In this document: piece after piece, positions 4,883 through 51,614 of the stretch | How the letters are laid out: every line of letters begins with the position of its first letter | Numbering within the stretch: the stretch's first letter is position 1 | Assembly (NCBI GenBank): GCA_031551255.1 | Contig: JAVBNW010000068.1 | Coordinates: 1,428-65,427, forward strand | Source of the DNA: Eubacteriales bacterium | GTDB taxonomy: Bacteria; Bacillota; Clostridia; Christensenellales; UBA1750 | Direction: 5' to 3' | DNA: 64,000 nt | Translations under genes and position numbers: made by a program | The notes under the pieces: generated by a model | Database searches by the model: none | What the model was told of the DNA's origin: nothing | The model's input: only the letters and a program-made list of their open reading frames with translations

Positions 4883-5064
4883 TTAGGGCGTGTCCCTAAA
4901 GTCACCGCGATGCAGATTGTGGTCGGTTTTTCGGCGGATCAAAGAGTTTCGTCGGTTTTCTTCGGCAGGGGGCTCGCAGGTGGTATGCGTACCCGCCCGC
5001 GAGGCGCAAAGCGCCGACAAGATGCCGCAAGATGCGCGCGCAGGAGTTTAGGGACACGCCTTAG
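4883..5064. repeat. 18-nt inverted repeats bracketing a 146-nt GC-rich intergenic segment
   Basis: TTAGGGCGTGTCCCTAAA (4883-4900) versus reverse complement of TTTAGGGACACGCCTTAG (5047-5064): 16/18 match, 14 contiguous. The left copy is itself a TTTAGGG/CCCTAAA hairpin just after the DUF512 stop. Confidence 0.6.
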
Positions 5065-5080
5065 TCTAAAGGAGGAACCT

Positions 5081-6409
5081 ATGAAACCATTGGTAGCCAT
5101 CGTCGGCCGCCCGAACGTGGGCAAGTCGACCTTCTTTAACAAAATGATCGGCGCAAAGGTGTCCATCGTGGACGACCAGCCCGGCGTGACGCGCGACAGG
5201 GTGTATGGCGACTGCGAGTGGCAGCGCTATCACTTTACGTTGATCGACACCGGAGGAATCGACGTCGCCAGCGAAGACCCTTTATTTCAACAAATGCGAA
5301 GGCAAGCGGGCATCGCGATCGAAACCGCCGACGCCATCTTGTTTTTCGTGGATGGGCGCGAGGGCGAAACCGCCGCCGACCGCGAAGTGGCCGATCTTCT
5401 CAGACGCTCGGGCAAGCCTACGCTGCTGGTGGTGAACAAGATCGACAGCAAGGCGCTGGAAGGCGAGGCGACGGACTTTTACTCGCTGGGCATGGGAACC
5501 CCCATGGCGATTTCCGCGGTCAACCTGCTGGGGGTAGGCGATCTTCTCGAAGAACTGTGCGCGCTGCTTCCCGACCCGGATGCGCCCGAGGACGACCCGG
5601 ATCGCATGAAGGTTGCGGTGGTGGGCCGCCCCAACGTGGGCAAATCTTCGCTGGTGAACCGGCTACTGGGCGAGGAAAGGGTGATGGTATCCGATATCGC
5701 GGGCACCACGCGGGATGCAATCGACACGCAGTTTCAAGATGAGGAAGGCCGCCCCTATACCATCATCGACACGGCGGGAATCCGCCGCAAGGCGAGGATT
5801 GACGACGGAACCTTGGAACGCTACAGCGTCATCCGCGCGCTGGCGGCCATACGCCGCTGCGACATCGCGCTGATGATGATCGACGCTCAGGACGGCGTCA
5901 CCGAGCAGGACCAGCGCATCGCGGGTTATGTACAGGACGAGGGCAAGGCCTGCATCATCCTGGTGAATAAATGGGATTTGCCCGAAAAGGAAACCGGCAC
6001 GCTGGAAAAGTATGCTCTCAAGGTGCGGGGAGATCTTAAGTTTCTTGCCTACGCGCCGCTTTTGTTCATTTCGGCGCTCACCGGCCAGCGAGCGCACCGC
6101 ATATTGCCCGAGGTGGCGCGGGTAATGCAGAACGCCACGCGGCGCCTTACCACAGGCGTGCTCAACGACGCGCTGCGCGACGCGATGGCCATCAACCCGC
6201 CACCCACCGACCGGGGCCGCAGGCTGCGCATCTACTACACCACGCAGCAGGGCGTCAAGCCGCCCTCGTTTCTGCTCTTTACAAACAACCCCGAGCTCAT
6301 GTATCCTCCTTATGAGCGCTACCTCGAAAACCACTTCCGCAAGACGTTTGATTTAGAGGGTACGCCCATTCGGTTCTTCTTGCGTGCGCGAGACGAAAAG
6401 GAGGCCTGA
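5081..6409 (+). CDS. der: ribosome-biogenesis GTPase Der (EngA), double G-domain
   Basis: ATG 5081 behind GGAGG. Two P-loops (GRPNVGKST, GRPNVGKSS), DTGG/DTAG, NKID/NKWD and a KH-like C-terminus. Confidence 0.95.
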   Translation: MKPLVAIVGRPNVGKSTFFNKMIGAKVSIVDDQPGVTRDRVYGDCEWQRYHFTLIDTGGIDVASEDPLFQQMRRQAGIAIETADAILFFVDGREGETAADREVADLLRRSGKPTLLVVNKIDSKALEGEATDFYSLGMGTPMAISAVNLLGVGDLLEELCALLPDPDAPEDDPDRMKVAVVGRPNVGKSSLVNRLLGEERVMVSDIAGTTRDAIDTQFQDEEGRPYTIIDTAGIRRKARIDDGTLERYSVIRALAAIRRCDIALMMIDAQDGVTEQDQRIAGYVQDEGKACIILVNKWDLPEKETGTLEKYALKVRGDLKFLAYAPLLFISALTGQRAHRILPEVARVMQNATRRLTTGVLNDALRDAMAINPPPTDRGRRLRIYYTTQQGVKPPSFLLFTNNPELMYPPYERYLENHFRKTFDLEGTPIRFFLRARDEKEA

Positions 6410-9705: not shown

Positions 9706-9732
9706 CGAACGTCCGATTGGCGGACGCCCGCT
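9706..9732 (+). repeat. 27-nt direct repeat, copy 1
   Basis: CGAACGTCCGATTGGCGGACGCCCGCT, identical to 9974-10000. Contains its own GTCCG-ATTGG-CGGAC hairpin. Confidence 0.9.
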
Positions 9733-9973: not shown

Positions 9974-10000
9974 CGAACGTCCGATTGGCGGACGCCCGCT
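9974..10000 (+). repeat. 27-nt direct repeat, copy 2
   Basis: Perfect copy of 9706-9732, 241 nt downstream of copy 1. Confidence 0.9.
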
Positions 10001-20480: not shown

Positions 20481-23400
20481 CTATTCTTCCCGGGGATCGA
20501 TGAGCAGCGGGCGGCCGAGCGTGGGGATGGTGGAAAAATCCCATATCACGCCTGACCATCCGGCGGCCTGCATGGCCGCGGCGAGGTTGCCCTGCGTCAC
20601 CGTTGCGCCATCCTTTAAATTTGCTCCCGGCGTAGGCGTGACCGGTACGCCGCCGCGCGTAAGCGAAAGAGTGTTCACGGCGCTGTTATTGCTCAGCGCA
20701 AGCGCAAACGCGCTGGCTGCCACGCGCCCCACCACGCTGGAGCCGCCGGCGGCAACAAGCGGGTTGAGCGCAAAGCACGCGCTCACCGGATTGGGCACGC
20801 CGCCGGAACCCGCCGCCACCACGCCCCCGGCCGCCAGCGCGGCGATCATAGTGCCCGAGGCATAGCACCTGATGAGCGAGCTTCCCTGCGAAATAGCCTG
20901 CGCCATCCCCGCTGTGTTTCCCGCGCTTTGACAGTTACCAGAGGCATAGCAATTAAGAGCGCTGGATGCGGAAGTAAAGTTGCTGACAAAGGCGCCCGCG
21001 CTGCTGCCCGTTGCCGTTACCGAGCCGGTGGCAAAGCAGCGCTCGAAAGCCGTGTCGAAAGCCGCCCCGATGAAACCCGCTACGGAAGTTCCAGAGCCGT
21101 TTACGTTGCCCCTGGCGTAGCAGGCGGTACACTGAGACGACGTCGCATCGCCGATCAAACCGCCGACGTTGGAGCGTCCGCTTGCGCTGCCCGTTGCGTA
21201 ACAACTTTGGCACAGCGCGCTCAAGGCAGATCCGATCAAACCTCCGATCGAAGTGCCGCCCGAGGCTGTGGAGCCCACAGCGGAACCGGTGGCGAAGCAT
21301 GAGGTAAAGGCTATGGCGTTTGCCGCAGTGCTCAAACTGCCCACCAGCCCGCCTACGAACGATACGGCGCTCACCCGGCCCGTTGCGGAGCAGTTCGTTA
21401 TGGCATGTGAAAAGGCCGCTGAAGCGACCGTCAAGTCGCCGATCAAGCCCCCGGCACGGCTGCTGAAGGGCACCAGTACATCGACCGCGGCGCTGCTATT
21501 CATTATGCTTCCCTCGTGCAGCCCGCCCACCAGGCCGCCGAACGGCCGGGCCAGCGACGTTGCGGCGCTCGTATCGGAAATCGAGCCCGACGGCACGGCG
21601 CACTGGGCGATCGTAGCATGTTCCGCGTTGCCGATCAGCCCCCCCACATACTGAAAGCCGCTGATATCGCCGCTTGCGACGCAGCCCGATATGTCGCACA
21701 GGGACGGATCCCGATCCGGATTCCCGCCGACGAGGCCGATCAGCCCGCCCACAAAGGCGCCGCCGCTTACCGCTACGGTGGCGATGCAGCGCTGTACAGA
21801 TTCGGCGCTTTCATCCAGCGCCACCAAAGCGCCCAATAAGCCGCCACATGCGCCGGAGGATATAAAGCTTTGGCCGGTTACCGCAATATCGCTCAGCTGC
21901 GTCGCGCCCGCGGAGGTAAAGAGGCGGCCGGCGAGCCCCCCTACAGCCGCGTCGCCGCCCTGTGCGGCGAGCGTCAACGCGGTTAACGTCATGTCGTGAA
22001 TGTTAAGCGGCCCTTGCAGCGTGCCGACGGCGCCGCCTACGTCCAGCAGTTCGCTGCCCAGGGCCTGCGCGCTTATCGCGCAGTTGTCGATGCCCATCGG
22101 CGAAAAGCTGCCCGTCAATGCGCCCGCCAACGCTCCCACATGCCCATTGTGTCCCTCGGATATCTGCGCGCTTACCTTTGCGCCCGCCAAATCAAAGCCT
22201 GCAATCGCAGCCCGCCGCACGGCGCCGAATAAACCCGCATACGCCACCACGCCAGTATTTTCCGGGGTTTGCGCAATGGGCATGTTGGCGATTATGCGCC
22301 GTGGTCCGTCGGTATCCATCGCCCCTGTGAAGATATGCTCGGGGCCGCCGGCCAGCGAAGCGTTCAGGTTGCCGATCGGCCGCCACCCCGCGCCGCCATA
22401 TGCCGCCGCATAACCGGCAAGGTCAAAAGATGTAAGCAGATGGTAGGCATCCTTCAGTGTGCCGGGCAAGCCGTAGAGCGCATCGGTATCGTCAAGCAGA
22501 ACCGCCATGCCTTCGATGTTGTCGAGCATGCGTGCGGTCTCCGCCACGCCGGCGCGATTGATAGGGTGACCAGGCAGTAAATCCGGCCACCTTGTCATCT
22601 CTACCACCGCGATCTGCCGAAGGCCGAAGGGGCTGCCCTCCGTGCCCGCGCCGCCTTCAAAAGGCATGCCCAGCGCACTGCCCGGCGAAACTGCCACGGA
22701 ACCTACTTGCCCAGCCAATTGCGCCACCGCGTACAGCACATAGCGGTAGCCATCCACTACGCCGGTCTCATCTGGATAGGGGGCGGGAACCTCGCGGCCG
22801 GGCAGCGCGCGCGAAATGATCTGCTCTTGCCCAAAGCTCAGCGCGAACCGGCCCCGCGCCGCAGTGCCGTCGGCAAGCGCTTGCTGATCGTTATAATCGA
22901 TGATGGTTTGCGCATCGGGGGCAGGCTCGCCGGGGGCGAGCAGAAGATAGTATACGACGCCCTGCCCGGCAAGAGTTTCAGATGCTCCATAGCGGAATAC
23001 GGCATCCACAGTTCTAAATGCCTCCCCCATCGCCAAGGAATCAATGCCAAGAAAAAAATCCAGCGGCGGCAGCACAATGGCGATCCGCTCCGCGGCGGGC
23101 GGGCAAGGCGGGAGGGTTGCTACGGCATTGATCGTCACCTCTTCATTTTGCAAAGAAGGGGCAACCGGCACGCTCCAGCGCCCCTGCGCATCTGCCTGCG
23201 TCGTAGCCGTGCGCACCATATCCCCCACCGTTATCACGACGCGCACGACTGCAAACGGCGTGGCTTCTCCGGTGATTTCCGCCAAGGGCACCGTAAGATT
23301 CGGGGCATCGATGGACACGCTGTTGCGCGCGCGCACGCGAATCGTTTCGATGCTCGTACACTTGGCATCGCAGCTTCTTTGCGTCAGCGCCAGGGCATAG

Positions 23401-23633
23401 CTGCCCGGCGCAAGCGGCGCAAGCTGCGCCGACCAGCGGCCCCGCTCGTCGGCGCATACCGCAAGCGCCTGTCCCGCCACGCTGATCGCAATGGCGGCGC
23501 ATGGCAGGGCCGTGCCCCGGATGAACAGGTCGTCCTGGCAATAATCCGGCCCCGTATCCACGCGCACGCCACAATGGGCCATGCACGCCCTCTGCGCGGT
23601 TAAGGTAAAGCCGGTAAATAGGCGCATGCGCAT
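20481..23633 (-). CDS. giant GLUG-motif repeat protein with N-terminal Ig-like modules
   Basis: More than 10 reiterations of xVGGLIG/VGGLVG/AGGLIG spaced about 25-35 aa apart, each followed by C(Y/F)A(T/S)G (beta-helix-like). N-terminal RGRWS/QGRWS Ig-like repeats. No obvious signal peptide. Confidence 0.7.
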   Translation of the reverse strand: MRMRLFTGFTLTAQRACMAHCGVRVDTGPDYCQDDLFIRGTALPCAAIAISVAGQALAVCADERGRWSAQLAPLAPGSYALALTQRSCDAKCTSIETIRVRARNSVSIDAPNLTVPLAEITGEATPFAVVRVVITVGDMVRTATTQADAQGRWSVPVAPSLQNEEVTINAVATLPPCPPAAERIAIVLPPLDFFLGIDSLAMGEAFRTVDAVFRYGASETLAGQGVVYYLLLAPGEPAPDAQTIIDYNDQQALADGTAARGRFALSFGQEQIISRALPGREVPAPYPDETGVVDGYRYVLYAVAQLAGQVGSVAVSPGSALGMPFEGGAGTEGSPFGLRQIAVVEMTRWPDLLPGHPINRAGVAETARMLDNIEGMAVLLDDTDALYGLPGTLKDAYHLLTSFDLAGYAAAYGGAGWRPIGNLNASLAGGPEHIFTGAMDTDGPRRIIANMPIAQTPENTGVVAYAGLFGAVRRAAIAGFDLAGAKVSAQISEGHNGHVGALAGALTGSFSPMGIDNCAISAQALGSELLDVGGAVGTLQGPLNIHDMTLTALTLAAQGGDAAVGGLAGRLFTSAGATQLSDIAVTGQSFISSGACGGLLGALVALDESAESVQRCIATVAVSGGAFVGGLIGLVGGNPDRDPSLCDISGCVASGDISGFQYVGGLIGNAEHATIAQCAVPSGSISDTSAATSLARPFGGLVGGLHEGSIMNSSAAVDVLVPFSSRAGGLIGDLTVASAAFSHAITNCSATGRVSAVSFVGGLVGSLSTAANAIAFTSCFATGSAVGSTASGGTSIGGLIGSALSALCQSCYATGSASGRSNVGGLIGDATSSQCTACYARGNVNGSGTSVAGFIGAAFDTAFERCFATGSVTATGSSAGAFVSNFTSASSALNCYASGNCQSAGNTAGMAQAISQGSSLIRCYASGTMIAALAAGGVVAAGSGGVPNPVSACFALNPLVAAGGSSVVGRVAASAFALALSNNSAVNTLSLTRGGVPVTPTPGANLKDGATVTQGNLAAAMQAAGWSGVIWDFSTIPTLGRPLLIDPREE

Positions 23634-23880
23634 CTCCCCCTCGGTACTGCCATTTTATGCTGTCGGGGGAAGAAGGTTCTTACTCGTCGTCGCGGACTGC
23701 GTAGGGCTCGTCGTATGCTTGCCGTCTCTCGCGACTATTCCGACACGCGGCAGAATATCGCAGGAAAGTGAAGATAACAACGAAAATTCACGGAAAGATC
23801 ACCGCTTCAAAAGCAGCAAAAGCCCACAATACCACTTGGTAGTGCGGGTTGTCTTAGGATTATTAGCGGTTATATATATT

Positions 23881-23900
23881 GGGAAGCGAAGAAAATGCTT
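23881..23900. repeat. 20-nt cassette-end repeat, copy 1
   Basis: GGGAAGCGAAGAAAATGCTT, 19/20 identical to 24654-24673. Lies just 3' of methyltransferase A. Confidence 0.8.
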
Positions 23901-23912
23901 GTAATAGATGTT

Positions 23913-24518
23913 TTAGGTTTTTACGGCCTTTGCAACAAAAAGAGAATAAGGAACAGGTTTCCCGTCAATCACTTTCGTGCTTTCGTAAAATTTCTTTATT
24001 TCTATTTTACCAAACCCAGTATCGTTCAATAATACAGACATTTGCATTTGCTCAAAACCGTTATGTCCATCAAAATCAGGCTCTGACATGTGAAATCCAT
24101 TGTCATCTTTATCTAAATCAATTATGATAAGTTTTCCATCTTCAACAAGTAAGTCATATAAAACCCTAAGGATTTCTTCGATATTCTTTATGTGATGCAA
24201 AACCATAGAAGTAAAAATAAAGTCAAACCTTTTATCCGGTAGCTTTTCATTGAGCAAATCTATTCGAACCGCTTCGGCGCTAGGAATGTCAGAAATTTTC
24301 CTGTTAATCTCATCAATCATCCCTTTTGAAGCATCAATAAAAGTAATTGATGAAAACAGATCGATTAATTCCAGACCAATAAGACCTGTCCCACAGCCAA
24401 ATTCCATAGCAAATTGACAACGATTGTCAATATATTGCCGTATACAGCTTGCTATTTCCTTTGCTCTTTCTTTACGTCTAATTGTATCAAAATTCTTAGC
24501 ATGCGCATCAAAATCCAT
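23913..24518 (-). CDS. class I SAM-dependent methyltransferase
   Basis: Motif I AMEFGCGTGLIGLEL, post-I FIDAS, FDFIFTSMVLHH. Confidence 0.8.
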   Translation of the reverse strand: MDFDAHAKNFDTIRRKERAKEIASCIRQYIDNRCQFAMEFGCGTGLIGLELIDLFSSITFIDASKGMIDEINRKISDIPSAEAVRIDLLNEKLPDKRFDFIFTSMVLHHIKNIEEILRVLYDLLVEDGKLIIIDLDKDDNGFHMSEPDFDGHNGFEQMQMSVLLNDTGFGKIEIKKFYESTKVIDGKPVPYSLFVAKAVKT

Positions 24519-24653
24519 CCTGTACCTCCACCGCTATAAATTATCTTCAAAATTATTCTGAGCTAATTGTGGCACACAGGTCGGATACGGCCCAATGCCT
24601 TTGCGTTCGACCGCTTTCATAAATTCTGGGATGATTGGCGATTTTAGATAGTA

Positions 24654-24673
24654 GGGAAGCAAAGAAAATGCTT
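24654..24673. repeat. 20-nt cassette-end repeat, copy 2
   Basis: GGGAAGCAAAGAAAATGCTT, overlapping the stop codon of methyltransferase B. Confidence 0.8.
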
Positions 24674-25472
24674 ATTTTCTGCAAATCATCAAAGCATGGT
24701 CTGAAAGTCCCGTGCACGACGGACTATCGACCATTCTGTCGGCAAGCTTCATGTATAAGGCAAGTGTTTCTTCACTCATCGTATTGATAGCCCCTTGGGC
24801 AAAAACATAATCCACTCCGCAATTCTTAACAATATCGAGATTTTTCTGCTTTGCGTCATGTTCCATCTCTTCAGGGGATGTGAAAAAGAAAACGCCTTGC
24901 AGTGACTCTAACGTGCTATGCTCAAGAATGAATTTATCCGGTTCTACGCTTGCGTATTCATTTCGCCATTTGTCATCGACACAAGCCGCAGCATAAACGC
25001 CCAGCCTATTTATATAGGAAAACGCCAATATCGCATCTGCCCGGGCTATTCTACAACACTCATCAAAGACCTCCGACCTCTCTTCTCGAGGTAAATGGTA
25101 CATAGGGCCAAGGCATAAGACGACATCAAAGGCATTATCGGGTATGTCGGACAAATTAGTAGCGTCCCCAACTGCCGCGCGGATGTTTTTCTTTCCCGCT
25201 GCGGCAATCTTCTTGTTAAACACCGCAATATTGTCCGCAGAAAGGTCTATGCCCGTGTAATGAGCACAAAAATCAGAAAAATGCATTCCATAATATCCTG
25301 TCGCGCATCCTACTTCTATTACGTTAGCGCCTGCGTGGATAAATTCGCTTAGCAATTTCTTTGTATAGTGAAATTCAAGATTTCTCGCCCTTGATTCCGA
25401 AGCCCTGTCATCTTCGTTATAGCCGCCATAAAAGCCAACTACTTTTTCATGATTTGAAGCCAAGTTTACCAC
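24672..25472 (-). CDS. class I SAM-dependent methyltransferase (second, divergent)
   Basis: Motif I VIEVGCATGYYGMHF, GIDLS, FDVVLCLGPMYHL. Start is GTG 25472 or TTG 25463. Confidence 0.8.
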   Translation of the reverse strand: MVNLASNHEKVVGFYGGYNEDDRASESRARNLEFHYTKKLLSEFIHAGANVIEVGCATGYYGMHFSDFCAHYTGIDLSADNIAVFNKKIAAAGKKNIRAAVGDATNLSDIPDNAFDVVLCLGPMYHLPREERSEVFDECCRIARADAILAFSYINRLGVYAAACVDDKWRNEYASVEPDKFILEHSTLESLQGVFFFTSPEEMEHDAKQKNLDIVKNCGVDYVFAQGAINTMSEETLALYMKLADRMVDSPSCTGLSDHALMICRK

Positions 25473-25716
25473 CGCCTGGTATAAATTATTCCCGTTCTCA
25501 TGCTGAACTGATCATATCACACAAATAGAAAGCGGTCGAATGCTTTCATGAATCCTGGAATACAAGGACGAAATAGATGCGTCTTTCACACCTCTCCTCG
25601 CAAGGATGAAGGCTCTAGGCGTATTTTCAATCACCTTGTAAGGATCATAGCCCGTTTGGATTTTCTGTCACGGAGCCCGCCTCTTGCATATATTGATCCG
25701 GGAAAAGAGGTGCACC

Positions 25717-26466
25717 ATGAACAACTTTTGTAGAAACAGCGGCCACTGGTCGCATTTGGGAAATCAAGGCAGCTGTCTGCCCCGCCGGTGTGCTGAAGGT
25801 CCGCAAGGTCTCATCGGCCCGACAGGCCCACAAGGCCCCAGCCTTATACCGGAACCCGATCCGCTATTTGACCCGTGTAAATTTGTGCGCGTGAATGAAA
25901 ACGGCGAGTATGTGCTTGTGGAAGTACTGGGCCTAAATACGGGCAGTCTGCCAAACGCAGATGCCTACAATGCATGGTCTTTTGATCCGATTGGCCTTAA
26001 CGCAGGCGTACCGCTGCCCTTGGGGCAGTTGTATTTGACACGCATGATCCTCCAGTGTGCGGTGTTTATTTTTGATGTTTCCTATGTCATCACTGCTGCG
26101 GGCACCGGTTTGACGGCGGGCGCGTGCGGCATAGGGCTCTACAACAACGCGGGTACGCTCGTAGCATCCGCGCCCAATCCGCAAACCGATTGGACAACGA
26201 CTGGTCAAAAACTGACTAGCCTTTCCTCGCCCATAACTTTGGGCAACCCGGAGGGGCCGGAGCATATTTTCGTGGCATTCCTTGTCAATGGCACGACAAG
26301 CCCCTCGTTTTTGGCGGCGCCAACGGGTATCGGAAATTCGCTGGTCCGCCCCAGTACAAAACCCGACCGCTTTTCGCTTTTCGGGACGGGGCTGACAGCA
26401 CTTCCATCCACGATTCCATTCCTGGGTATGCAGGCCAGCACGATCGGCATCTGGGATGCTATCTAG
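25717..26466 (+). CDS. collagen-like (GXY)5 protein with about 200-aa C-terminal globular domain
   Basis: GPQGLIGPTGPQGPS triplet run near the N-terminus, then a beta-rich C-terminal domain. The architecture recalls BclA-type exosporium or phage-fibre proteins. Confidence 0.55.
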   Translation: MNNFCRNSGHWSHLGNQGSCLPRRCAEGPQGLIGPTGPQGPSLIPEPDPLFDPCKFVRVNENGEYVLVEVLGLNTGSLPNADAYNAWSFDPIGLNAGVPLPLGQLYLTRMILQCAVFIFDVSYVITAAGTGLTAGACGIGLYNNAGTLVASAPNPQTDWTTTGQKLTSLSSPITLGNPEGPEHIFVAFLVNGTTSPSFLAAPTGIGNSLVRPSTKPDRFSLFGTGLTALPSTIPFLGMQASTIGIWDAI

Positions 26467-26572
26467 CGGCTATCCCAATGGCAGCATAATGACATTTTTG
26501 CCGCAGCAAATCACCAAAAACCCCTCAGCCCAAGTTCAACACCGATAGGGATAACACCGCAATCGGAGGATG

Positions 26573-26611
26573 GGACATAGAGCGTGAAGCAGCACCCTAT
26601 GTCCTGTTTTT
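26573..26611 (+). terminator. candidate terminator of the collagen-like gene
   Basis: GGACATAG (26573-26580) / CTATGTCC (26597-26604) stem with a 16-nt loop, followed by TGTTTTT. Confidence 0.4.
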
Positions 26612-26819
26612 CGCCTTACCCCGCACAGCTCACAGGAAAAGGCAGTGATACCCTTTTTCGGAGATTTACTAAAAGTATAATTCGTAAAGCCGTTGCGGAC
26701 ACTGCCCGCAAGCTGTGTTAGGCATGATTGTCACACCTCCATTCCCGCCCTGCCCCCAAAACACGGCTTGCATCTTGTTTTGGGGCTGCAAAGTCCCTGC
26801 GGGGGCTTTGGGATGAAGA

Positions 26820-26848
26820 TTGATAATTTGAGGGCGGCGCGCTATACT
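26820..26848 (+). promoter_or_regulatory. near-consensus sigma-70 promoter of the HD-domain gene
   Basis: TTGATA (26820-26825), 17 nt, TATACT (26843-26848), about 80 nt upstream of the CDS. Confidence 0.55.
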
Positions 26849-26925
26849 GTGAATGGTAGATTCGTTAGGCGCGCCGGCGCATAATGGATGCGACATAGGG
26901 GCTAATTTATATAACCTGCAGAAAG

Positions 26926-27933
26926 TTGGTCTCAATGTATACTTCGATATATACCAATGATACACCCATATTTATAGAACAGTTGGCAAACACTCCAGAA
27001 ATGCGCAGATTGCGTAATGTCGGGATGCATTGTGGCTGTGAACACGCAAAATTTCCAATCTATCGAAAAGAGATAATGCCATACACACGTTTCATGCATA
27101 GTGTGGGCGTTGCAAAGATCGTTTGGAATTTTTCGCGAGATACTAAGCAGACAATCGCAGGATTACTGCATGATATTGCAACACCGGTTTTTGCGCATAC
27201 AATTGATTTTTTGAACGGCGACCACTTAGCACAAGAAACAACTGAAGATAAAACCTTGCAATTTATAGAAAATTCAAAAGAAATCAGGGCGCTGCTCAAA
27301 GAATATCATGTATGTGTCGAAGAGATAAGTGACTATCATATGTATCCTATTGCCGATAATGATACACCTATGCTTTCGGCTGACCGCTTGGAATATACCC
27401 TTGGCAATGGTTTTTGCGTATATCATATGGAGCAAAATTACCTGAAAAGCATTTATTCGGATTTAATTGTTACGCAAAACGAAAACGGCGAAGATGAGCT
27501 TTGTTTTCAAACTATTCGAGCGGCTACAGATTTTACTCAAATTTCATTGCGTAATTCCCGCTTATTTGTATCGGACGAAGATCGTTACTCAATGCAACAT
27601 TTAGCTGACATTATCAAGTGCGCCATAGATAATGGTGTTTTGACGCTTGATGATCTATATTTAACTGAATACGAAGTCATCAGTAGACTGATTGCAGATG
27701 AAAAATTATCCATATTGTGGAAGAGATATTCGGAGATTTCTGCTGTCACATCATCATCGGAAAAACTGGGAAACCAGTATTGCGTAAATGTTTCCGCAAA
27801 GAAGCGGTATATCAACCCATTAGTGCTTGTGGGCAATAGCGCTATGAGACTGACAGATTTGGATGACGATATGCGGAATCAGATTCAATCGTTCTTGGAC
27901 GTAGACTTTAACAAATGGCTCTACGCAGTATAA
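26926..27933 (+). CDS. HD-domain phosphohydrolase (COG1078-like)
   Basis: MRRLRNVGMHCG...YTRFMHSVGVAKIV...IAGLLHDIATPVFAHTIDF matches the FxRLxxIxQ / TRFxHSxGV / LLHDIGH layout of HD hydrolases. AT-rich gene. Confidence 0.7.
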   Translation: MVSMYTSIYTNDTPIFIEQLANTPEMRRLRNVGMHCGCEHAKFPIYRKEIMPYTRFMHSVGVAKIVWNFSRDTKQTIAGLLHDIATPVFAHTIDFLNGDHLAQETTEDKTLQFIENSKEIRALLKEYHVCVEEISDYHMYPIADNDTPMLSADRLEYTLGNGFCVYHMEQNYLKSIYSDLIVTQNENGEDELCFQTIRAATDFTQISLRNSRLFVSDEDRYSMQHLADIIKCAIDNGVLTLDDLYLTEYEVISRLIADEKLSILWKRYSEISAVTSSSEKLGNQYCVNVSAKKRYINPLVLVGNSAMRLTDLDDDMRNQIQSFLDVDFNKWLYAV

Positions 27934-28002
27934 GCAAACTGTCGTGCGTTGTTAAGATTTGAAACGCCCCTTGATTACTATAATTATCTACACAATACAA
28001 CA

Positions 28003-28035
28003 GGACTGCCCAAAATCGGGCAGCCCTGCTGTGTT
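28003..28035 (+). terminator. terminator after the HD-domain gene
   Basis: GGACTGCCC-AAAATC-GGGCAGCCC stem (one mismatch) followed by a T-rich tail. Confidence 0.45.
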
Positions 28036-28406
28036 GCTAGTTGTTAACAATCCCTACGAGCGCAAAGCCAATGACCGCGGGGTTTTCTCGGAATCCATGG
28101 ACGACATGTTTCCACCCTCTACCTCGTCATTTCCCTCGCCTCGTCGCTTTTCATATTCTTTATCCCTGCCAAAGCCCAAAGGAGCCTCAGCTTCTTTCGT
28201 AGAAGAGGGCCATGGAGCGCTCAGATGTGAATTGCGTGGATGAAATAAACGCATCTTCCCACGTCCCCCCATGCTCCTCGTCCTGCGAAGGGGGATTTCG
28301 GTGCGCGGCGCGCCCCGACGGCCATTCCCCCGCGCAGCTCCGGCCCCGAGGCGAGCTTCCGAGGGGGACCGCAGCCCCCTTCGGAAAGGGAGGAGCCACG
28401 GAGCGC

Positions 28407-28441
28407 AAAAATCCGCATCCCTCGCAAGGATGCGGACTTTT
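28407..28441 (-). terminator. rho-independent terminator downstream of the tRNA remnant
   Basis: Minus strand: TCCGCATCC-TTGCGAG-GGATGCGGA followed by TTTTT, beginning 20 nt after the CCA end. Confidence 0.75.
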
Positions 28442-28461
28442 GAGCGCAGTGCGCCCCGGTA

Positions 28462-28506
28462 TGGCGCTCCCGGAGGGATTCGAACCCCCGACCTCCGGTT
28501 TAGGAA
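28462..28506 (-). pseudogene. orphan 3' half of tRNA-Arg(CCU): anticodon loop to CCA; putative prophage attL core
   Basis: Minus strand reads TTCCTAA (loop, anticodon CCT) ACCGG AGGTC GGGGG TTCGAAT CCCTC CGGGAGC G CCA. The next 5 nt (TCGAT) cannot pair with ACCGG, and no GCTCCCG acceptor 5' strand exists upstream, so the gene is truncated. Confidence 0.75.
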
Positions 28507-28641
28507 ATCGACGATTCGCGAGTTAAGGCACATTGTAAAATCTTTACGTGCCTCTATTAGGCGGTTTTTGCGAGAGGTTGTCGCATCGTGCGTTATAGTG
28601 ATTCTTCGCATGTGGGTGGAATGTGGGTAAATATCCCATGT

Positions 28642-29649
28642 TCACGATATAGCCGTAGCTAATAGGTCTGGTAGATTACGAGCAATGATAGCACCTACCG
28701 AGGTAAAGTTATATTGAATAATATAATTGAAGATGCGCAAATCATCAATTTCTAACTCCAGGTGGCTTTGTAGATCGCTTTCAGTAATGCAAATCACTTT
28801 TAAATATGGTTCCACTTTCTTTATAATGCACATTTTTATAATTGAACTATAGCCATAACGACCATTTCGACGTACTAATTCTTTATCTAATATTTCCATT
28901 ATTGTATTAACAATTTTTTCTCTCTCTTTGGGATCCAGAATTTTATTTTTTAGAGCCTGTTCAATGCTTGTTCTATTCTTCGTCAAGGAATAGTAATTAT
29001 GTTGGCGGAGTTTTTCATACAGGCTAGATATTTGCTCCTCCAGGGGAATTGATAAACGAATACCGGTCGATGGTGATTTTATTAAGTTTATATCTTCCAT
29101 GTAACGGAATATTGGATGAAAGCTTTTGCCTCTCAAAATTTCGCTTATTAATTGCTTATAATAAATGAATGATTCTCTATTTTTTTTTACGTTAGAAACA
29201 TTAAGGAAAAAATTCAAAATTTGTATATGCACCAATACTTCTCGGGATGTCTTGGATAATATTTTTAGAGCTTCGTTTATCATTAGTTTGTCTATTCCAT
29301 CATCATTCGCAGTAATATATTCAATAGCCAATTTAATTGTTAGAGAATCAAACTCATCGGTTGGGTTGCTAGCGGCGATCTTAGTTAAATTTGCAAGCAT
29401 ATATTGAATTATAGGTTCGTTGAAGGTATTTATCGCTTCTGGTTTTAGGTGATAGATTTGCTCTAGTAGCTTGTTAACCACTCGCATAACACGCGCTTCG
29501 GCAATATCCGCCGCCTCTTGTGCTAATCTATATGCATTACTCCGATACACATCTAGTATTAGCTCTTTCGTATCAAAATACGATAAACCGTAATAATTAG
29601 CAATATTGTCACCTTTTTTATTGCTTTGCATAAATTCTTTATTTTCCAC
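28642..29649 (-). CDS. hypothetical 335-aa all-alpha protein (att-proximal moron, large subunit)
   Basis: Very AT-rich. GTG 29649 behind GAAGGAG, overlapping the upstream small gene by 11 nt. No TM segment and no motif I can name, except one Rx4H string (RGKSFH). Confidence 0.7.
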   Translation of the reverse strand: MENKEFMQSNKKGDNIANYYGLSYFDTKELILDVYRSNAYRLAQEAADIAEARVMRVVNKLLEQIYHLKPEAINTFNEPIIQYMLANLTKIAASNPTDEFDSLTIKLAIEYITANDDGIDKLMINEALKILSKTSREVLVHIQILNFFLNVSNVKKNRESFIYYKQLISEILRGKSFHPIFRYMEDINLIKSPSTGIRLSIPLEEQISSLYEKLRQHNYYSLTKNRTSIEQALKNKILDPKEREKIVNTIMEILDKELVRRNGRYGYSSIIKMCIIKKVEPYLKVICITESDLQSHLELEIDDLRIFNYIIQYNFTSVGAIIARNLPDLLATAIS

Positions 29650-29839
29650 TTAAGTCTCCTTCAGTGTAAAAATTATCTCCAATCTTATTTTTTTGAATTG
29701 TTTTTTTGGTAATAGATATATCTTTTTGAATTTTAGTCACTTTACCCAACGCAACCAGGGATACTACAAGACTAAGCAAAGCAAATAAGTTTTGAAGAAT
29801 ATCTGACCAGTGATCTGCGAAAAATTTCCCCCAACCCAT
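29639..29839 (-). CDS. 66-aa single-pass membrane protein (moron, small subunit)
   Basis: ATG 29839 behind AAGGAG (8-nt spacing). MGWGKFFADHWSDILQNLFALLSLVVSLVALGKV, then a Lys-rich tail. The track ORF 29639..29893 starts upstream without an RBS. Confidence 0.6.
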   Translation of the reverse strand: MGWGKFFADHWSDILQNLFALLSLVVSLVALGKVTKIQKDISITKKTIQKNKIGDNFYTEGDLSGK

Positions 29840-29864
29840 TGTTTTCACTCCTTTTATTGTCTGG

Positions 29865-29893
29865 ACTATACCATCATTTACAAGTGCTGTCAC
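29865..29893 (-). promoter_or_regulatory. moron promoter
   Basis: Minus strand GTGACA (29893-29888), 17 nt, TATAGT (29870-29865), immediately after the lysis-operon terminator. Confidence 0.5.
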
Positions 29894-29900
29894 TCCTTGC

Positions 29901-29939
29901 CAAAAGAAAAAGACGAGACGCCCAACTGGACGCCTCGCC
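29901..29939 (-). terminator. rho-independent terminator ending the late/lysis operon
   Basis: Minus strand GGCGAGGCGUCC-AGUU-GGGCGUCUCGUC (12 bp including 3 G-U pairs), then UUUUUCUUUU. Begins 6 nt after the holin stop. Confidence 0.75.
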
Positions 29940-29944
29940 TTTAC

Positions 29945-30247
29945 TTATTTTGTTTCATACACTGCTGCCTCAATAGCCGCTCGAATGATCTCCTCGTCGA
30001 ACGTAATGCGCCGCACGGCAAGCTGATCCTTCACACGCTGCATGGCATAGTTGATGCGATGTTCCCGTTCTATGAAACCAGCATTTGCGTATTGTTCTGC
30101 GGCTTGCACGGCGATCTGTGCAACACTGCAAAGATACTGCCAACGCTCATCGCCCAGTTTTGAGCGAATCCAGGGGATAAGGACGGCTGATATGACAGCG
30201 GCGATGAGGCCTATGACAGCGACGATGATCTGGGTAATATCAAGCAT
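29945..30247 (-). CDS. phage holin, LL-H family
   Basis: MLDITQIIVAVIGLIAAVISAVLIPWI TM helix, then ...IAVQAAEQ...IIRAAIEAAVYE, typical of LL-H-type holins. Confidence 0.75.
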   Translation of the reverse strand: MLDITQIIVAVIGLIAAVISAVLIPWIRSKLGDERWQYLCSVAQIAVQAAEQYANAGFIEREHRINYAMQRVKDQLAVRRITFDEEIIRAAIEAAVYETK

Positions 30248-30509
30248 GGCCCGATTCCTCGCTTTCTACGGCATCCTGGCCGTATAGTTGCTTCAATTTG
30301 ATGGTATTCTCGGCGCGGGCTTTCCAGGAGTAAAACCCGACGGCAACAGCTGCGACAGTTCCAATATACGAAAGCCACACCGCCAGCTCATCATGAGCCT
30401 TGAAGAGGACAATGAAGGCCCCTACTGCCACGCCCACAAAGTACGTTGCCATAACAAGGGCAATAATGGCTTTGGTGAATTCTCGCTTGGGTCGATTCGA
30501 CTTGCTCAC
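30240..30509 (-). CDS. two-TM holin-like membrane protein
   Basis: AIIALVMATYFVGVAVGAFIVLF and VWLSYIGTVAAVAVGFYSW helices. Start uncertain: GTG 30509 in a GTGA overlap with the xhlA-like stop, or ATG 30533. Confidence 0.5.
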   Translation of the reverse strand: MSKSNRPKREFTKAIIALVMATYFVGVAVGAFIVLFKAHDELAVWLSYIGTVAAVAVGFYSWKARAENTIKLKQLYGQDAVESEESGHA

Positions 30510-30799
30510 AGGCCACCACGCCCCAAAATCCATGCCGCAAAAGCACCGGCGAGTGCGCCAATAACCGTGCCTATCACGGCATCCCAATGCTTCTTGGGAC
30601 GTTCTTCGATAGCTCGTAACCGACCGTCGTGTTCCTTGATTTCGGCAAGAATATGATCGTTCTGTTCGGTAAGCCGATAGATGACCTTAAGGATTTCGTC
30701 GCTACGATCCAACCGAACCTTAATGTCCCTAATCTCGCGGTTCACCCCGGTAAGGGCTTCCTCTACGCGTGCGAGACGTTCTTCCGTCGTTCCCGACAT
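30506..30799 (-). CDS. XhlA-like lysis-associated membrane protein
   Basis: N-terminal coiled coil (RLARVEEALTGVNREIRDIKVRLD...) and C-terminal TM VIGTVIGALAGAFAAWIL, as in PBSX XhlA. Confidence 0.65.
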   Translation of the reverse strand: MSGTTEERLARVEEALTGVNREIRDIKVRLDRSDEILKVIYRLTEQNDHILAEIKEHDGRLRAIEERPKKHWDAVIGTVIGALAGAFAAWILGRGGL

Positions 30800-30800
30800 T

Positions 30801-31484
30801 CTACATCACCCCCAACGCTTTCCCCGTCTGCGGCCCCGCAACGCCGTCCACAGTCAGCCCTTTGGCACGTTGGAATGCGCGTAGTGCGGTTTCAGTTAGC
30901 TCGCCGAAGGAGCCATCGAGGGGGCCAGGGTCATAGCCTGCACGTTTGAGAGCTACCTGTAGTTCTCGCACTGCATCACCCTTGCAGCCTCTCCATAGTT
31001 TTGTACTGCTTTCGGAGGCAGATGTGCCGTTTGAAGCGCCAAAATACTTGACGCTTGTCGCGCCACCGTTCGGATCGGTTTGCAGCCACCTAGCACGTCC
31101 GGATCTGGTATCTACATGGCAAAAGCCCGGTTTCTGCCCTGGCTTGTATTCGTACAGACCCACACCGCCAAGGCCCAAGCTATCCGCGTACTGAGCGATA
31201 GCACGCGGTGTCACATCGGGTATACGTATGTCGACCGCTTTGCCATAGAGGTGCTGGGATGCTTTTGCACCGTTGATCTTGGCGTTGTACTTCGGATCGC
31301 GGTATCCGCTGGAGATAAGCACCGGCCGGCCGTCGAAGTGGGCACGGATTTTTTCTAACGCCGCCGTCAAATCCTCACATATTAGTACTTCGTCACCACC
31401 GCCCTTGCAAGCAAACTCACGTACGGCAAAATTTGGCGAAGCCTTCGTGACACCGTCTTCCTTCAGGCTATAGGTCTTGACCAT
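30801..31484 (-). CDS. endolysin: peptidase M15 (zinc D-Ala-D-Ala carboxypeptidase-like) plus PG_binding_1
   Basis: ATG 31484 behind GGAGG. SQHLYGKAVD and FCHVD zinc ligands. C-terminal GDAVRELQVALKRAGYDPGPLDGSFGELTETALRAFQ. Confidence 0.85.
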   Translation of the reverse strand: MVKTYSLKEDGVTKASPNFAVREFACKGGGDEVLICEDLTAALEKIRAHFDGRPVLISSGYRDPKYNAKINGAKASQHLYGKAVDIRIPDVTPRAIAQYADSLGLGGVGLYEYKPGQKPGFCHVDTRSGRARWLQTDPNGGATSVKYFGASNGTSASESSTKLWRGCKGDAVRELQVALKRAGYDPGPLDGSFGELTETALRAFQRAKGLTVDGVAGPQTGKALGVM

Positions 31485-31557
31485 TGGAGGCCTCCGTTTC
31501 CGCTGCCATGGTAAGCAGCATAAAGTGACCGGCCGCCGAAGCGTCCGGTATGTGATG

Positions 31558-32355
31558 TTATACAACCTTGTAGAAATTGTCGTTCAATACGGGTGGCCGC
31601 CAATCAGCTTGCTTGTTGAATACACGCAGCGCGATGTAGGTTTTGCCATAGTCGGTGAAATAGTCACCTATCGCGAAGGGGTGCCCATCTGGAAGATCCG
31701 CCCAGCGCGGATGTGTCCCAGGAACCTCGGTCGTACCGTCGTCAGGGATGTCCTCTGCGCCTCCTGTAGGCTTCGAGGTTTCCTTGTATTCGCTGGGTAC
31801 CAGATGCGGGTAGTGCGGCTCGTAGAGCGTCACACCGTATTCATGGATGGGAGTATAATACTTCCCATCGACGGGATCGCGGCGGATTGCTCCATACGGG
31901 ACGTGTTCGCCCCATACGAAGTCAAGTGGTTCATCTTGCGGGGACGGCTCCTTGCGGATGACGCGGAACATCGTACGTCCACCCTCGCTTCCCGGCTCCC
32001 ATCCTGCCTGTGCGATGTGCGGTTTTGTAACGATGTAAAAAATACCGTTTGGCATATAGACAGTTTCGTTGACATAAACCGGACCCATTTCAGGAGTCCA
32101 CGCGCGAGAACCGCCGATGTTAGCGATTTCCTCGAGCGCATCATCCGGCAAGTCACCAGCGCCTATGATGCCCGCCCGCATAAGGTAACTTTGCGCGCGC
32201 CGGACATGAACAGGCGGCAAGCCTGATTGACCTGCCGCCACAAATACTTCGTGCATCGCAAGCACCGCTTCCCAAATTTCCGAGGTTTCCTTTGCCTTCT
32301 CAGATCGTTGGAGCGCGCGCTGTTTTTCGAGCGACGGAGTGGGTGTCTGCATCAT
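31558..32355 (-). CDS. tail-fibre-associated protein with two carbohydrate-binding-like repeats
   Basis: AWTPEMGPVYVNETVYMPNGIFYIVTKPHIAQAGWEP and RWADLPDGHPFAIGDYFTDYGKTYIALRVFNKQADWRP resemble CBM5/12-type motifs. Confidence 0.45.
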   Translation of the reverse strand: MMQTPTPSLEKQRALQRSEKAKETSEIWEAVLAMHEVFVAAGQSGLPPVHVRRAQSYLMRAGIIGAGDLPDDALEEIANIGGSRAWTPEMGPVYVNETVYMPNGIFYIVTKPHIAQAGWEPGSEGGRTMFRVIRKEPSPQDEPLDFVWGEHVPYGAIRRDPVDGKYYTPIHEYGVTLYEPHYPHLVPSEYKETSKPTGGAEDIPDDGTTEVPGTHPRWADLPDGHPFAIGDYFTDYGKTYIALRVFNKQADWRPPVLNDNFYKVV

Positions 32356-49409: not shown

Positions 49410-51614
49410 TTAAAATCCGCCGTACGTGACATAGCAATGGCAGTTGATGCACTGCTCAGCCGAGTCCGTACCGGTGTATTCTGGATCGCGCGGGAATCGT
49501 AGGCCGTTGCTGAATTTTTCATCCACAGTGCGCACTTGTCCGTTTAATGCGACATGGTTGGGATCGCCGTTCTTTCCGTCCCTTGGATCTTTCTGAGGCC
49601 TGTGATGCCATGTTTTCGTGGTGGCCCCGGCCGTTCGCATCATGTCGTATTGACCACTCGTAAGGCTTGTTAGCGTTTCCTGCCGGGCAATCGTTCTGGC
49701 GCGACTCTGTGAGGTTTGCATCTCCTGCATAATCTCTTGCGTCATTTGTTTGGTGCTGGTGCCATGCGCCATACCGTCAGACACAATACGGCTGATACTG
49801 TCCCTGGTCGCTGCCTCGATGCCCTGGATACGGCTTCCGCCCCGGAGCTTCGCCGTGCTGATCAATTCCGGACGCTGAACGCTGCGGATGTTGTAGAGGC
49901 TCTGGCTGTGCTTTGCACCCGCGTCATAGGCTTTCCTCCACAGCGGATCGTAAATTTTCTTAAGTACAATGTTCTCGTTCGCCCAATCGAGAAGGCTGCC
50001 GGTGAATTTGCTTGACAAAGCTTTTTGCTGATCCGAATCAAGCATGTTCCAAGTCTCGAAGTTGACGGTGCCGTCCTCATTGATGTACTGGCGTAATTCA
50101 TCCCAGCCCGTCCCGTCATCCTTACTGCTCTCGCCAAGCACGATCCCTATGCGCTTCGCCTGCTCCCGGAAGTATTTCATGGTGGAAATTTCAAAAGCCG
50201 CAGCGCATTCTCGCACTGCGGCATCTTCCGATCGTTGGGCTGCGGCCAAGTTGATACTTCGCTTCGCCGACTTTTGCCCGTAAGCATCGAGGATTTCGAT
50301 AGCGTCCTCGTCCGTTCCATCCTCCACCTTGGCGTCGTTGCCCTCAGACGTATCGTCCTCGAGTACGATAGTCTCGTCTGCACCAGTGAACTCAGATGTC
50401 GCTACGGCCTCAGAAACCGCCACGGGATCTTCGTCCTCATCAATGTATAGATCGGTATACAGCCCCTTCCAGACACGGCCACCGGCCTTTGAGGCTGGCA
50501 TATCGAGCAATTCTCTGGCCTCATCTTTTAAGAGCAACCCGGCATTCCAGCCATCAATACCTTTCTGTTTGTCAAACTCCTGGTTACGAGGTACGATGTC
50601 GTCGTAGTGCCAGATGAGGTTTTCCCCAAATGCAGGTATGAGCTGCTTGTTTACAGCTTCCTCGCGGCGGCGAAGGGGTGGCATGAGGACGTTCTGCGCG
50701 TAGATGAATTGCGCCGCCTCTGCCGTGGATCGGTTGCTGTTCTCAGTTATACCCATGATCTCGCGAGGAACGCCAAAATGTTCCAAAACCGCATCGCGAA
50801 GATAAATCCGACCGGCGACCATATCCATGTCTTTCATGGTGTCACCGACCTTTTGAACGCTTATCTCGCCATTGACCGTTGCCATGCCATGACTTTTGAA
50901 AACGCCTTGAAAGCGTTCGAGCCATTCCATGCGGAACCGCTCACGTTGTTCGTCCTTACTTTTGGGCATTGCTACGATTATGTTTGGCGTGGCGTCATTA
51001 AAAAAGAACCGCTTCTGAAACTTCGCGGCATATTCGTCAGTCTCAACTTCATCGGCAATGCTCTCAGCAGCCCCGAGGCCTCGCATGAATGGATCGAGTG
51101 GATTGAGGGATTTTTGTACAAACATATCCTCAACGGGAACATCTAAGATGCCACCGCTGGATGTTCGAATCGAATAATAGGGGTTCCCTAGATATGGCGT
51201 GGAGAACACCCAATGAATCGGAACAGGCCAGAGTTCGTTCGGTCTTCCCCTTGCATCTCGCTCGATAATGAAGTAGCCCTCGCCTTTGAGCAGCAAATAT
51301 ACCTCCTGTAGTTGCCAGAGGGATGCACTCGAATACTCGTGCAGCGGATTCGGGTTATTCCAAAAATCCAAGAAGGGGTGAGACGTGATTTCCTGTTCTT
51401 TTCCGTAGCTGTCGATCGCATACAGCTTCCCCGAAGCAAAAGAAAGGTCGGAGGCGATTCTACCTACGACCGCAAGACGGGGGCTGGTACTGTATGATTT
51501 AATCCAATCCGTTGTGTTTCTCTCGGGTGGCCTAGACCAGCGCGGCAACATGCTGGCATCGTATCTTCTAAACGAATCGTTGTTTCTTCTCGGTCGTCTG
51601 CCGAATAAGGGCAT
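49410..51614 (-). CDS. portal protein fused to a MuF / SPP1-gp7-like head-morphogenesis domain
   Basis: HK97-type portal N-terminal about 430 aa. C-terminal ...ARQETLTSLTSGQYDMM...HVALNGQV...CINCHCYVTY is MuF-like. Confidence 0.75.
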   Translation of the reverse strand: MPLFGRRPRRNNDSFRRYDASMLPRWSRPPERNTTDWIKSYSTSPRLAVVGRIASDLSFASGKLYAIDSYGKEQEITSHPFLDFWNNPNPLHEYSSASLWQLQEVYLLLKGEGYFIIERDARGRPNELWPVPIHWVFSTPYLGNPYYSIRTSSGGILDVPVEDMFVQKSLNPLDPFMRGLGAAESIADEVETDEYAAKFQKRFFFNDATPNIIVAMPKSKDEQRERFRMEWLERFQGVFKSHGMATVNGEISVQKVGDTMKDMDMVAGRIYLRDAVLEHFGVPREIMGITENSNRSTAEAAQFIYAQNVLMPPLRRREEAVNKQLIPAFGENLIWHYDDIVPRNQEFDKQKGIDGWNAGLLLKDEARELLDMPASKAGGRVWKGLYTDLYIDEDEDPVAVSEAVATSEFTGADETIVLEDDTSEGNDAKVEDGTDEDAIEILDAYGQKSAKRSINLAAAQRSEDAAVRECAAAFEISTMKYFREQAKRIGIVLGESSKDDGTGWDELRQYINEDGTVNFETWNMLDSDQQKALSSKFTGSLLDWANENIVLKKIYDPLWRKAYDAGAKHSQSLYNIRSVQRPELISTAKLRGGSRIQGIEAATRDSISRIVSDGMAHGTSTKQMTQEIMQEMQTSQSRARTIARQETLTSLTSGQYDMMRTAGATTKTWHHRPQKDPRDGKNGDPNHVALNGQVRTVDEKFSNGLRFPRDPEYTGTDSAEQCINCHCYVTYGGF

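Follow-up and report, generated by a model that had tools for sequence, protein, structure and literature searches.

The end of a prophage in a Eubacteriales bacterium (assembly GCA_031551255.1, contig JAVBNW010000068.1) carries an adenine- and thymine-rich (AT-rich) module of two overlapping genes which, judged from sequence, is a divergent copy of a gene pair widespread among bacteria. We put the probability at roughly 0.55 that the two genes are a conflict system of the abortive-infection type, carried by the prophage and expressed in the lysogen. In such an effector–sensor defence, a helical protein would sense infection and activate a co-translated membrane effector of 66 amino acids (aa). 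All coordinates refer to the 64,000-nucleotide (nt) stretch of DNA that was analyzed (the window), and the lysis cassette of the prophage, the gene pair and the att remnant are all read on its minus strand. The small gene, the proposed membrane effector (29639–29839, ATG at 29839), follows a ribosome-binding site (AAAGGAG, 29848–29854) placed 8 nt before its start codon, and its product has one predicted hydrophobic helix at around residues 12–32 (19-residue Kyte–Doolittle maximum 2.16), a Lys-rich linker and a polar C-terminal tail. No significant match to this protein was found in Pfam, PADLOC or NCBIfam, and its best PHROG match had an expect value (E) of 0.22. The large gene, the proposed sensor/regulator of 335 aa (28642–29649, GTG at 29649), overlaps the small gene by 11 nt; its own ribosome-binding site (GAAGGAG, 29656–29662) is contained in the small gene and precedes the GTG by 6 nt. 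The initial annotation, made from the sequence alone, had described a single-pass membrane protein overlapped in just this manner by a larger gene, and both the reading frame with its one predicted helix and the overlap with its internal ribosome-binding site were confirmed.

The same annotation had recognised no family for the large protein, a statement that no longer holds. The protein scored 79.8 bits against the NCBIfam model NF045477 (cut-off 45, E 2.4e-22) and carries the precomputed Pfam annotation PF28206 ('Vpar_1526'), and on these matches it is assigned to the LPO_1073/Vpar_1526 family, which is named but uncharacterised. A third model, phrog_19542, matched the window protein weakly (E 0.0016) and canonical family members strongly (1e-26 to 4e-172). 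A word-indexed homologue search returned the large protein itself alone; its relatives came from an exhaustive search, which retrieved 466 cluster representatives (50% identity clusters) at E ≤ 1e-3, typically of about 350 aa. The nearest of these was 34% identical over the N-terminal half only, the matches spanning approximately residues 10–165. The protein aligns collinearly with the family over its full length, down to a C-terminal LTSVG signature. The best-conserved part of the family is an N-terminal helical domain (residues ~20–165, 29155–29592 in the window), in which G21, D33, N38, A46, R53, P79, Q82, E126 and K133 are near-invariant and P79 is invariant; the window protein keeps G21, D33, N38, R53, Q82, E126 and K133. 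The C-terminal signature reads FTSVGAIIARN in the window protein (28675–28707) and LTSVGIAIAxAN in the family consensus, with G319 invariant and T316 and V318 highly conserved.

The AlphaFold2 model of the window protein is all-helical, in line with the earlier description of a 335-aa all-helical protein, whose reading frame was also confirmed. Its predicted local distance difference test score (pLDDT) is 78.9 and its predicted template modelling (TM) score 0.70, with block-mean pLDDT values of 83–96 over residues 21–150; a canonical family member was likewise modelled as all-helical (pLDDT 91.5, predicted TM score 0.85). Foldseek searches with the window model against PDB and BFVD, and with the canonical model against PDB, gave best E values of 0.42, 0.61 and 1.9 and TM-scores of about 0.2 or less for the top matches, and sequence and profile searches of PDB, including one with the family profile, found no solved relative. 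No Pfam domains were found in the proteins of the small/large pair, and neither a catalytic motif nor a nucleoside triphosphatase (NTPase) was found in the large protein. By tblastn, the window protein had no match in phage or plasmid collections, and the family member P0154 matched no phage and three plasmid records. PADLOC returned nothing for canonical members except the candidate PDC-S47 with P0154, a weak, collinear match over residues 25–98 (E 1.3e-4); the PDC-S47 model has 257 positions, the length of NF045477, and the two may belong to one superfamily, PDC-S47 as a distant branch. A link to ABC-3C MComp1, suggested by a lone weak match of P0154 (E 0.003), was rejected when it was not reproduced across 52 members. 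We also rejected the proposal that the string RGKSFH (residues 173–178) is a HEPN remnant. The motif is not conserved among 52 aligned family members: the R column holds K, D, S or V, 49–50 members have gaps at K, S and F, and 4 members have H in the H column. The sole HEPN-like score, to a Csm6 HEPN domain (E 0.049), was not significant and fell elsewhere, at residues 29–113, and no HEPN domain appeared among the structural matches.

A small gene upstream of the family gene is a near-constant feature of the family. In all eight distinct metagenome loci, a gene of 63–84 aa lay directly upstream of it. A pattern scan with one genome per species yielded 80 loci (L012–L091) from Bacteroidota, Acidobacteriota, Bacillota, Actinomycetota, Pseudomonadota, Cyanobacteria, Chloroflexota, Verrucomicrobiota, Spirochaetota, Synergistota and others, and from one archaeal metagenome-assembled genome (MAG); these were retrieved with a narrower alignment, the broad one being too divergent, and therefore over-represent the central clade of the family. 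All 85 loci for which a start was called, among them the window, had an upstream open reading frame (ORF), which scored as a membrane protein in 71. Once five wrongly picked ORFs had been removed, around 80 of the 85 were credible partners, overlapping and 60–110 aa long, so that conservation of the pair, which the initial annotation had proposed to check, held across many phyla. Among 73 unique canonical pairs, the small protein had two hydrophobic segments in 43 and one in 28. The 11-nt overlap of the window pair is the family norm, since −11 nt was the commonest value among the 80 loci (31, compared with 14 at −8 and 8 at −14). Overlaps in the family are nearly always −8, −11, −14 or −17 nt, that is, at one constant frame offset, which suggests a conserved coupling sequence at the gene junction. 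The window pair falls within the definition of the pair (an overlapping upstream gene of 60–110 aa with one or two transmembrane helices), and its small protein fits the partner gene of the credible loci in position, size and topology.

The two proteins of the family pair also have tails that match. A motif of about 19 aa occurs both in the C-tail of the small protein and in the N-tail of the large one, as in QKSGDNSTNIQAGGDVNI and KQxQKGGDNSTNIQAxxVxI. Tail identity was 0.384 within loci and 0.305 between loci, and none of 10,000 permutations reached the observed value. The two tails co-vary: in 71 of 73 pairs, either both partners have N two positions ahead of the invariant Q or neither does. 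Local alignment of tail to tail gave z > 3 in 73 of 80 loci, and a model of the small tail detected large N-tails in 31 of 85 loci, the reverse model succeeding in 44 of 85 (E < 0.01). The motif is enriched in G (3.3-fold), N (2.0-fold), V (1.95-fold) and Q (1.5-fold) and depleted in P (0.04-fold), L (0.17-fold) and K (0.62-fold), and its region in the canonical AlphaFold2 model has block-mean pLDDT values of 56–62 over residues 1–30. We found no earlier description of a conserved pair with matched tails in the literature searched. In the window, the segment KKTIQKNKIGDN of the small protein (residues 45–56, 29672–29707) matches the segment KEFMQSNKKGDN of the large protein (residues 4–15, 29605–29640), the latter a remnant of the N-terminal Q/N/G-rich motif of the family. 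Their local alignment score of 36 was reached by 57 of 20,000 shuffles (z = 4.1, P ~0.003). This 12-residue match keeps K..[IM]Q.NK.GDN; the N-tail of the large protein lacks the 'NIQAGGxVxI' part of the family motif, and the window tails are Lys-rich, unlike the composition bias of the family. The N-tail of the large protein has a mean AlphaFold2 pLDDT of 44 over residues 1–10 and 49 over residues 11–20. The window tails may represent a co-degenerated or re-tuned interface.

Natural fusions link the family domain to more than one kind of module. P0107, P0141 and P0055 join a membrane helix, the motif and the family domain in one protein, while two cluster representatives, P0115 and P0120, join a Cap5-like HNH nuclease, the motif and the family domain. 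The fused HNH domain matched PDB entry 9om4 (3e-11), the Cap5 HNH-SAVED structure 7rwm (2e-10) and PADLOC models of CBASS (cyclic oligonucleotide-based antiphage signalling system) endonuclease effectors (up to 4e-20). A domain able to accept a membrane-spanning or a DNA-cutting module at its N-terminal end acts as the sensing part of an effector–sensor immune protein would. NLR-type systems, too, are known to have effector domains that can be either integrated or encoded by a separate gene.

In several genomes, the pair is carried as phage cargo. The nearest relative of the window protein, P0002, is encoded in AT-rich cargo that adjoins phage tail genes and is followed by an Mrr-like nuclease gene. 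At this locus (L114, 400–3489), the pair has a low guanine plus cytosine (GC) content, and the gene after it, for a 544-aa Mrr_cat/NA-iREase1/FtsK_gamma protein, is possibly also a defence gene, the second in this slot. In Escherichia coli, the pair consists of WP_000687980 (81 aa, two hydrophobic segments plus the motif) and WP_000490525 (285 aa) and sits between the replication gene gpA and the portal gene gpQ of P2-like prophages; its small partner corresponds to PHROG 27656, and the pair was found in 7 of 5426 complete E. coli genomes. The P2 gpA–gpQ locus is an experimentally defined anti-phage hotspot (Rousset et al., PMC9122126), in whose supplementary table both E. coli proteins are entered as 'hypothetical'. 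The E. coli members received DefensePredictor log-odds of about 9–10 and the label 'Predicted novel defense gene' (PMC13092281, Tables S5 and S10). Other family members occur in a DISARM-like/OLD island, in a type I restriction-modification locus with toxin–antitoxin genes and beside a serine recombinase. On the strand opposite the E. coli pair, the P2 hotspot holds three co-oriented hypothetical genes (L113, 3690–6440; L121, 1945–4695), WP_000756244, WP_001085272 and WP_000508501, the last replaced by WP_112910042 in L121; these may be another candidate system.

The window pair lies at the end of its prophage, next to a four-gene lysis cassette composed of an endolysin (Peptidase_M15 plus PG_binding_1, 30801–31565), an XhlA-like protein (30506–30799), a membrane protein (30240–30587) and, as the final gene, a Phage_holin_6_1 holin (29945–30247). 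A terminator-like hairpin 3' of the holin gene (29909–29942) has a 15-pair stem with 8 G–C pairs, a loop of 4 and a T-run TTCTTTTGGC; the strong terminator that the initial annotation had placed at 29901–29939 was thus found at slightly different coordinates. The promoter noted directly after it was also recovered, as a putative site (GTGACA-17-TATAGT, 29865–29893) that starts 16 bases past the hairpin, matches the consensus at 10 of 12 positions and has a TG-extended −10 element. It is the sole TG-extended candidate among the promoter-like matches, and taken alone it is weak evidence because the AT-rich stretch yields an excess of such matches (12 observed against 5.6 ± 2.1 expected). The GC content of the two-gene module is 33.2%, compared with 53.0% for the prophage (48.6% in its lowest 1.25-kb window) and 59.4% for the host flank, which bears out the earlier statement that both genes are more AT-rich than phage and host. 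The portal gene of the prophage lies at 49410–51614, and the prophage extends past the right end of the window. Its sole phage DNA match was Faecalibacterium phage Roos, at 8% coverage, and no near-isogenic prophages lacking the cargo were found, endolysin and holin queries giving distant relatives only. The early prophage region also encodes a DUF5131 protein (60573–61280) and a DnaJ-domain protein (63055–63558).

On the other side of the pair, a sequence resembling the 3' end of a transfer RNA (tRNA) or transfer-messenger RNA (tmRNA) gene (GGTTCGAATCC ... GCGCCA, 28462–28510) lies about 130 nt downstream of the large gene and is followed by a hairpin and T-run (28406–28436). Positions 346–363 of the tmRNA model, corresponding to the T-loop, match this region with an E value of 0.025, below the gathering score. 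The interval 28406–28510 is probably an att remnant together with the likely end of the module's transcript. The att-proximal position claimed for the pair is supported by this tRNA/tmRNA-like end, whereas the label attL is an inference, as neither an intact tRNA or tmRNA gene nor a second att copy was found in the window; the complete gene and the second att site are probably located past position 64000.

The family pair can be compared with bacterial amyloid signalling, whose motifs are enriched in Q, N, G, V and I and contain little K, P or L (Dyrka et al., bioRxiv 10.1101/2020.01.06.895854). In the family, adjacent collinear genes carry a common motif at the C-terminus of the effector and the N-terminus of the presumed receptor, the window holding a weaker, 12-residue version, and the composition of the family motif and its low pLDDT, indicative of a disordered monomer state, also agree with such pairs; Pfam and structure searches found neither a Bell/HeLo effector nor an NLR or TGP receptor. 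With the Bell/NLR pairs (BASS1–10) and HET-S/NWD2, the family thus shares gene-pair logic, tiny intergenic distances, motif composition and the occurrence of both split and fused effectors; it differs in having neither an NB-ARC/NACHT NTPase nor a Bell/HeLo domain, in a motif of about 19 rather than about 25 aa, and in its presence in many phyla including unicellular bacteria, as opposed to mainly multicellular Actinobacteria and Cyanobacteria. The experimental precedent is Bab/Agp, described as an amyloid-signalling abortive-infection pair of an E. coli prophage, with a BASS11 motif and activation by templating (bioRxiv 10.1101/2024.11.07.622273). Bab/Agp resembles the family pair, which is known here from sequence and models, in its adjacent collinear genes within prophage or hotspot cargo and in a small effector with an N-terminal hydrophobic helix whose C-terminal motif recurs at the N-terminus of a larger, non-NLR sensor. 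The putative effector of the family, in contrast, lacks a Babybell/Bell domain and consists of a bare peptide containing one or two membrane helices.

Two further comparisons concern effectors and genomic position. As in CBASS (Cap5 HNH-SAVED, two-transmembrane effectors), a membrane peptide or an HNH nuclease, of Cap5 type in P0115, is attached to one sensor domain; unlike CBASS, the family has no cyclase, no SAVED domain and no nucleotide-signal gene, the Vpar_1526 domain standing in the sensor's place. Lambda RexAB, in which a cytoplasmic sensor is paired with a membrane effector, is lysogen-expressed cargo that excludes other phages. The P2 genes old and tin are likewise lysogen-expressed, prophage-encoded exclusion genes of the P2 slot (PMC9122126), the slot that the E. 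coli family pair also occupies. Neither RexAB nor old/tin has any sequence or structural relation to the family pair.

From these observations we infer a defence function, which could proceed as follows. A phage-derived trigger would cause the sensor to self-associate, bringing its disordered N-tails together. The C-tails of the small protein would communicate with these N-tails through the short matching segments, by strand-to-strand pairing and possibly by amyloid-like templating of the kind shown for Bab/Agp and HET-S/NWD2, so that the membrane helices of the effector cluster. Clustered helices would make the membrane leaky, and the infected cell, presumably dying, would no longer support phage growth. 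In its most specific form, the proposal is that the LPO_1073/Vpar_1526 pair is a minimal pan-bacterial amyloid-like signalling immune system, in which the Q/N/G-rich N-tail of a ~280–380-aa sensor of new fold becomes a template on infection, recruits the matching C-tail of a 60–100-aa membrane peptide and triggers membrane failure. This form is tentative and we consider it rather doubtful, well below our estimate for defence as such; both are held at these levels because the partners are not homologous to Bab, Bell, NLR or TGP proteins and because single-motif fusions exist. Templating is least certain for the window copy, whose motif is shortened in both partners. The cargo reading of the initial annotation, defence or exclusion, is therefore retained in its outline (cargo at a prophage end with its own putative promoter, a membrane protein with a helical partner) and gains the conserved pair, the AT-rich prophage cargo of the nearest relative, the P2 hotspot, the HNH relatives and the DefensePredictor score, while the orphan status of the large protein and its HEPN link fall away.

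A number of results weigh against this interpretation. Neither window protein matches any PADLOC-DB v2.0.0 model at E ≤ 1, and the Foldseek and PADLOC checks that the initial annotation had suggested, run on the models and proteins, thus yielded neither a structural relative nor a defence-system match. The terminator and the promoter are consensus matches only. The window copy itself is the weak point. It shares with the family a score above the curated cut-off, full-length alignment, the TSVG signature and an overlapping upstream membrane gene; it is at the same time very divergent, both of its tails look shortened, neither of its proteins scores against the canonical motif models (..G.NS.N[IY]Q.GG[DN][VI].I), and no homology could be detected between its small protein and either the canonical small partners or the partner of the nearest relative. 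Its link to the family rests on the large protein, the architecture and the 12-residue match. At the level of the family, the co-variation of the tails largely follows a split between two big clades and may therefore reflect few independent events. The fusion P0107 has a single copy of the motif, which can accordingly be a plain linker, so that templating is not obligatory. The 148 neighbour proteins of 37 species-level loci were mostly housekeeping, with few restriction-modification, integrase or insertion sequence genes; a strong defence-island signal is absent from these loci, and we do not claim enrichment. Finally, the E. coli members are absent from the accessible portion of the DefensePredictor table of units chosen for screening (PMC13092281, Table S6).

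Four other readings were weighed against an abortive-infection-type defence. The likeliest of them, though improbable, is a toxin–antitoxin or addiction module that mainly stabilises the prophage or other mobile elements, the small membrane peptide being a toxin restrained by the large protein. Translational coupling of a small membrane protein to a larger partner would suit such a module, as would the sporadic distribution of the pair among complete E. coli genomes and its frequent occurrence alone among housekeeping genes or beside HicAB, PIN/MazE, BrnT or SocA_Panacea. Against this, a putative toxin encoded first, a partner five times larger and matching tails are atypical of the known types, and the fusions, in which the family domain shares a chain with a membrane helix or an HNH nuclease, fit an effector and its sensor better than a toxin and its neutraliser. 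The two readings also overlap, many abortive-infection systems behaving like toxin–antitoxin pairs. A little further down in likelihood comes superinfection exclusion, in which constitutive pairing of the tails would tether the helical protein to the cytoplasmic side of the membrane, and the complex would block DNA entry of incoming phages without killing the cell. The matching tails could be a mere docking interface, the pair is lysogen-type cargo at a prophage end with a predicted membrane anchor, and Vpar_1526 appears in the subcellular-fractionation tables of the outer-membrane proteome of Veillonella parvula (PMC5491611); the HNH-nuclease fusions, however, point to a killing or degrading output rather than an injection block, and the family is common outside prophages.

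That the pair is an accessory membrane complex unconnected with conflict, serving for example envelope stress or other physiology and carried by chance on mobile elements, seems to us less likely still. It would agree with the mostly housekeeping neighbours in the 37 loci and with the lack of a catalytic motif or structural relative in our searches, but it sits poorly with a patchy distribution across many phyla, atypical GC content, phage cargo slots including the P2 hotspot, nuclease fusions and high DefensePredictor scores. The least likely rival, which we regard as very improbable indeed, is a lysis accessory of the prophage (an antiholin, spanin or lysis regulator). Its appeal lies in the four-gene cassette next door and in the membrane helix of the small protein. 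The hairpin and the separate promoter-like site nevertheless divide the pair from the lysis operon, the GC content of the pair is 20 points below that of the phage, and the family is also present at chromosomal loci outside phages, while its P2-like phage members lie far from the lysis genes; no significant match to holin, spanin or lysis families was found.

Some features of the surrounding host DNA may be recorded here. On its host side, the att remnant is flanked by a second AT-rich block (23634–28050, 44.5% GC), which encodes two SAM (S-adenosylmethionine)-dependent methyltransferases on the minus strand (23913–24518 and 24672–25472) and, on the plus strand, an ORF with a weak tail-fibre PHROG match (25684–26466) and an HD-domain protein (26926–27933); this block could be an island that inserted earlier at the integration site of the prophage. 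The host flank (region 1–23600) holds a gene for a 1050-aa Big_6/GLUG surface protein (20481–23633). A perfect 27-nt direct repeat, CGAACGTCCGATTGGCGGACGCCCGCT, which contains its own inverted repeat, occurs in the host part at 9706–9732 and 9974–10000, 268 nt apart. The host, an uncultured, Christensenellales-like member of the Clostridia, has a Der GTPase (4910–6409) that is 87% identical to metagenome proteins and 67–69% identical to proteins of named MAGs (Christensenellaceae, Candidatus Pullichristensenella).

If the pair is indeed an abortive-infection-type defence, it would represent an unrecognised, small (~1.2 kb) and widespread anti-phage system, present in gut Clostridia prophages as well as in P2-like E. 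coli phages, with a sensor domain that has no structural relative in the databases searched. The coupling of sensor to effector would then add a second, independent example of motif-templated signalling to bacterial immunity. In the more doubtful templating form of the proposal, amyloid signalling would reach beyond Bab/Agp and the NLR/Bell pairs of multicellular bacteria into many phyla and into phage cargo, and the HNH-fused relatives would show the same sensor driving different effectors. The E. coli P2 pair offers a tractable model, and the pair in the window is the likely lysogenic-conversion cargo of its prophage.

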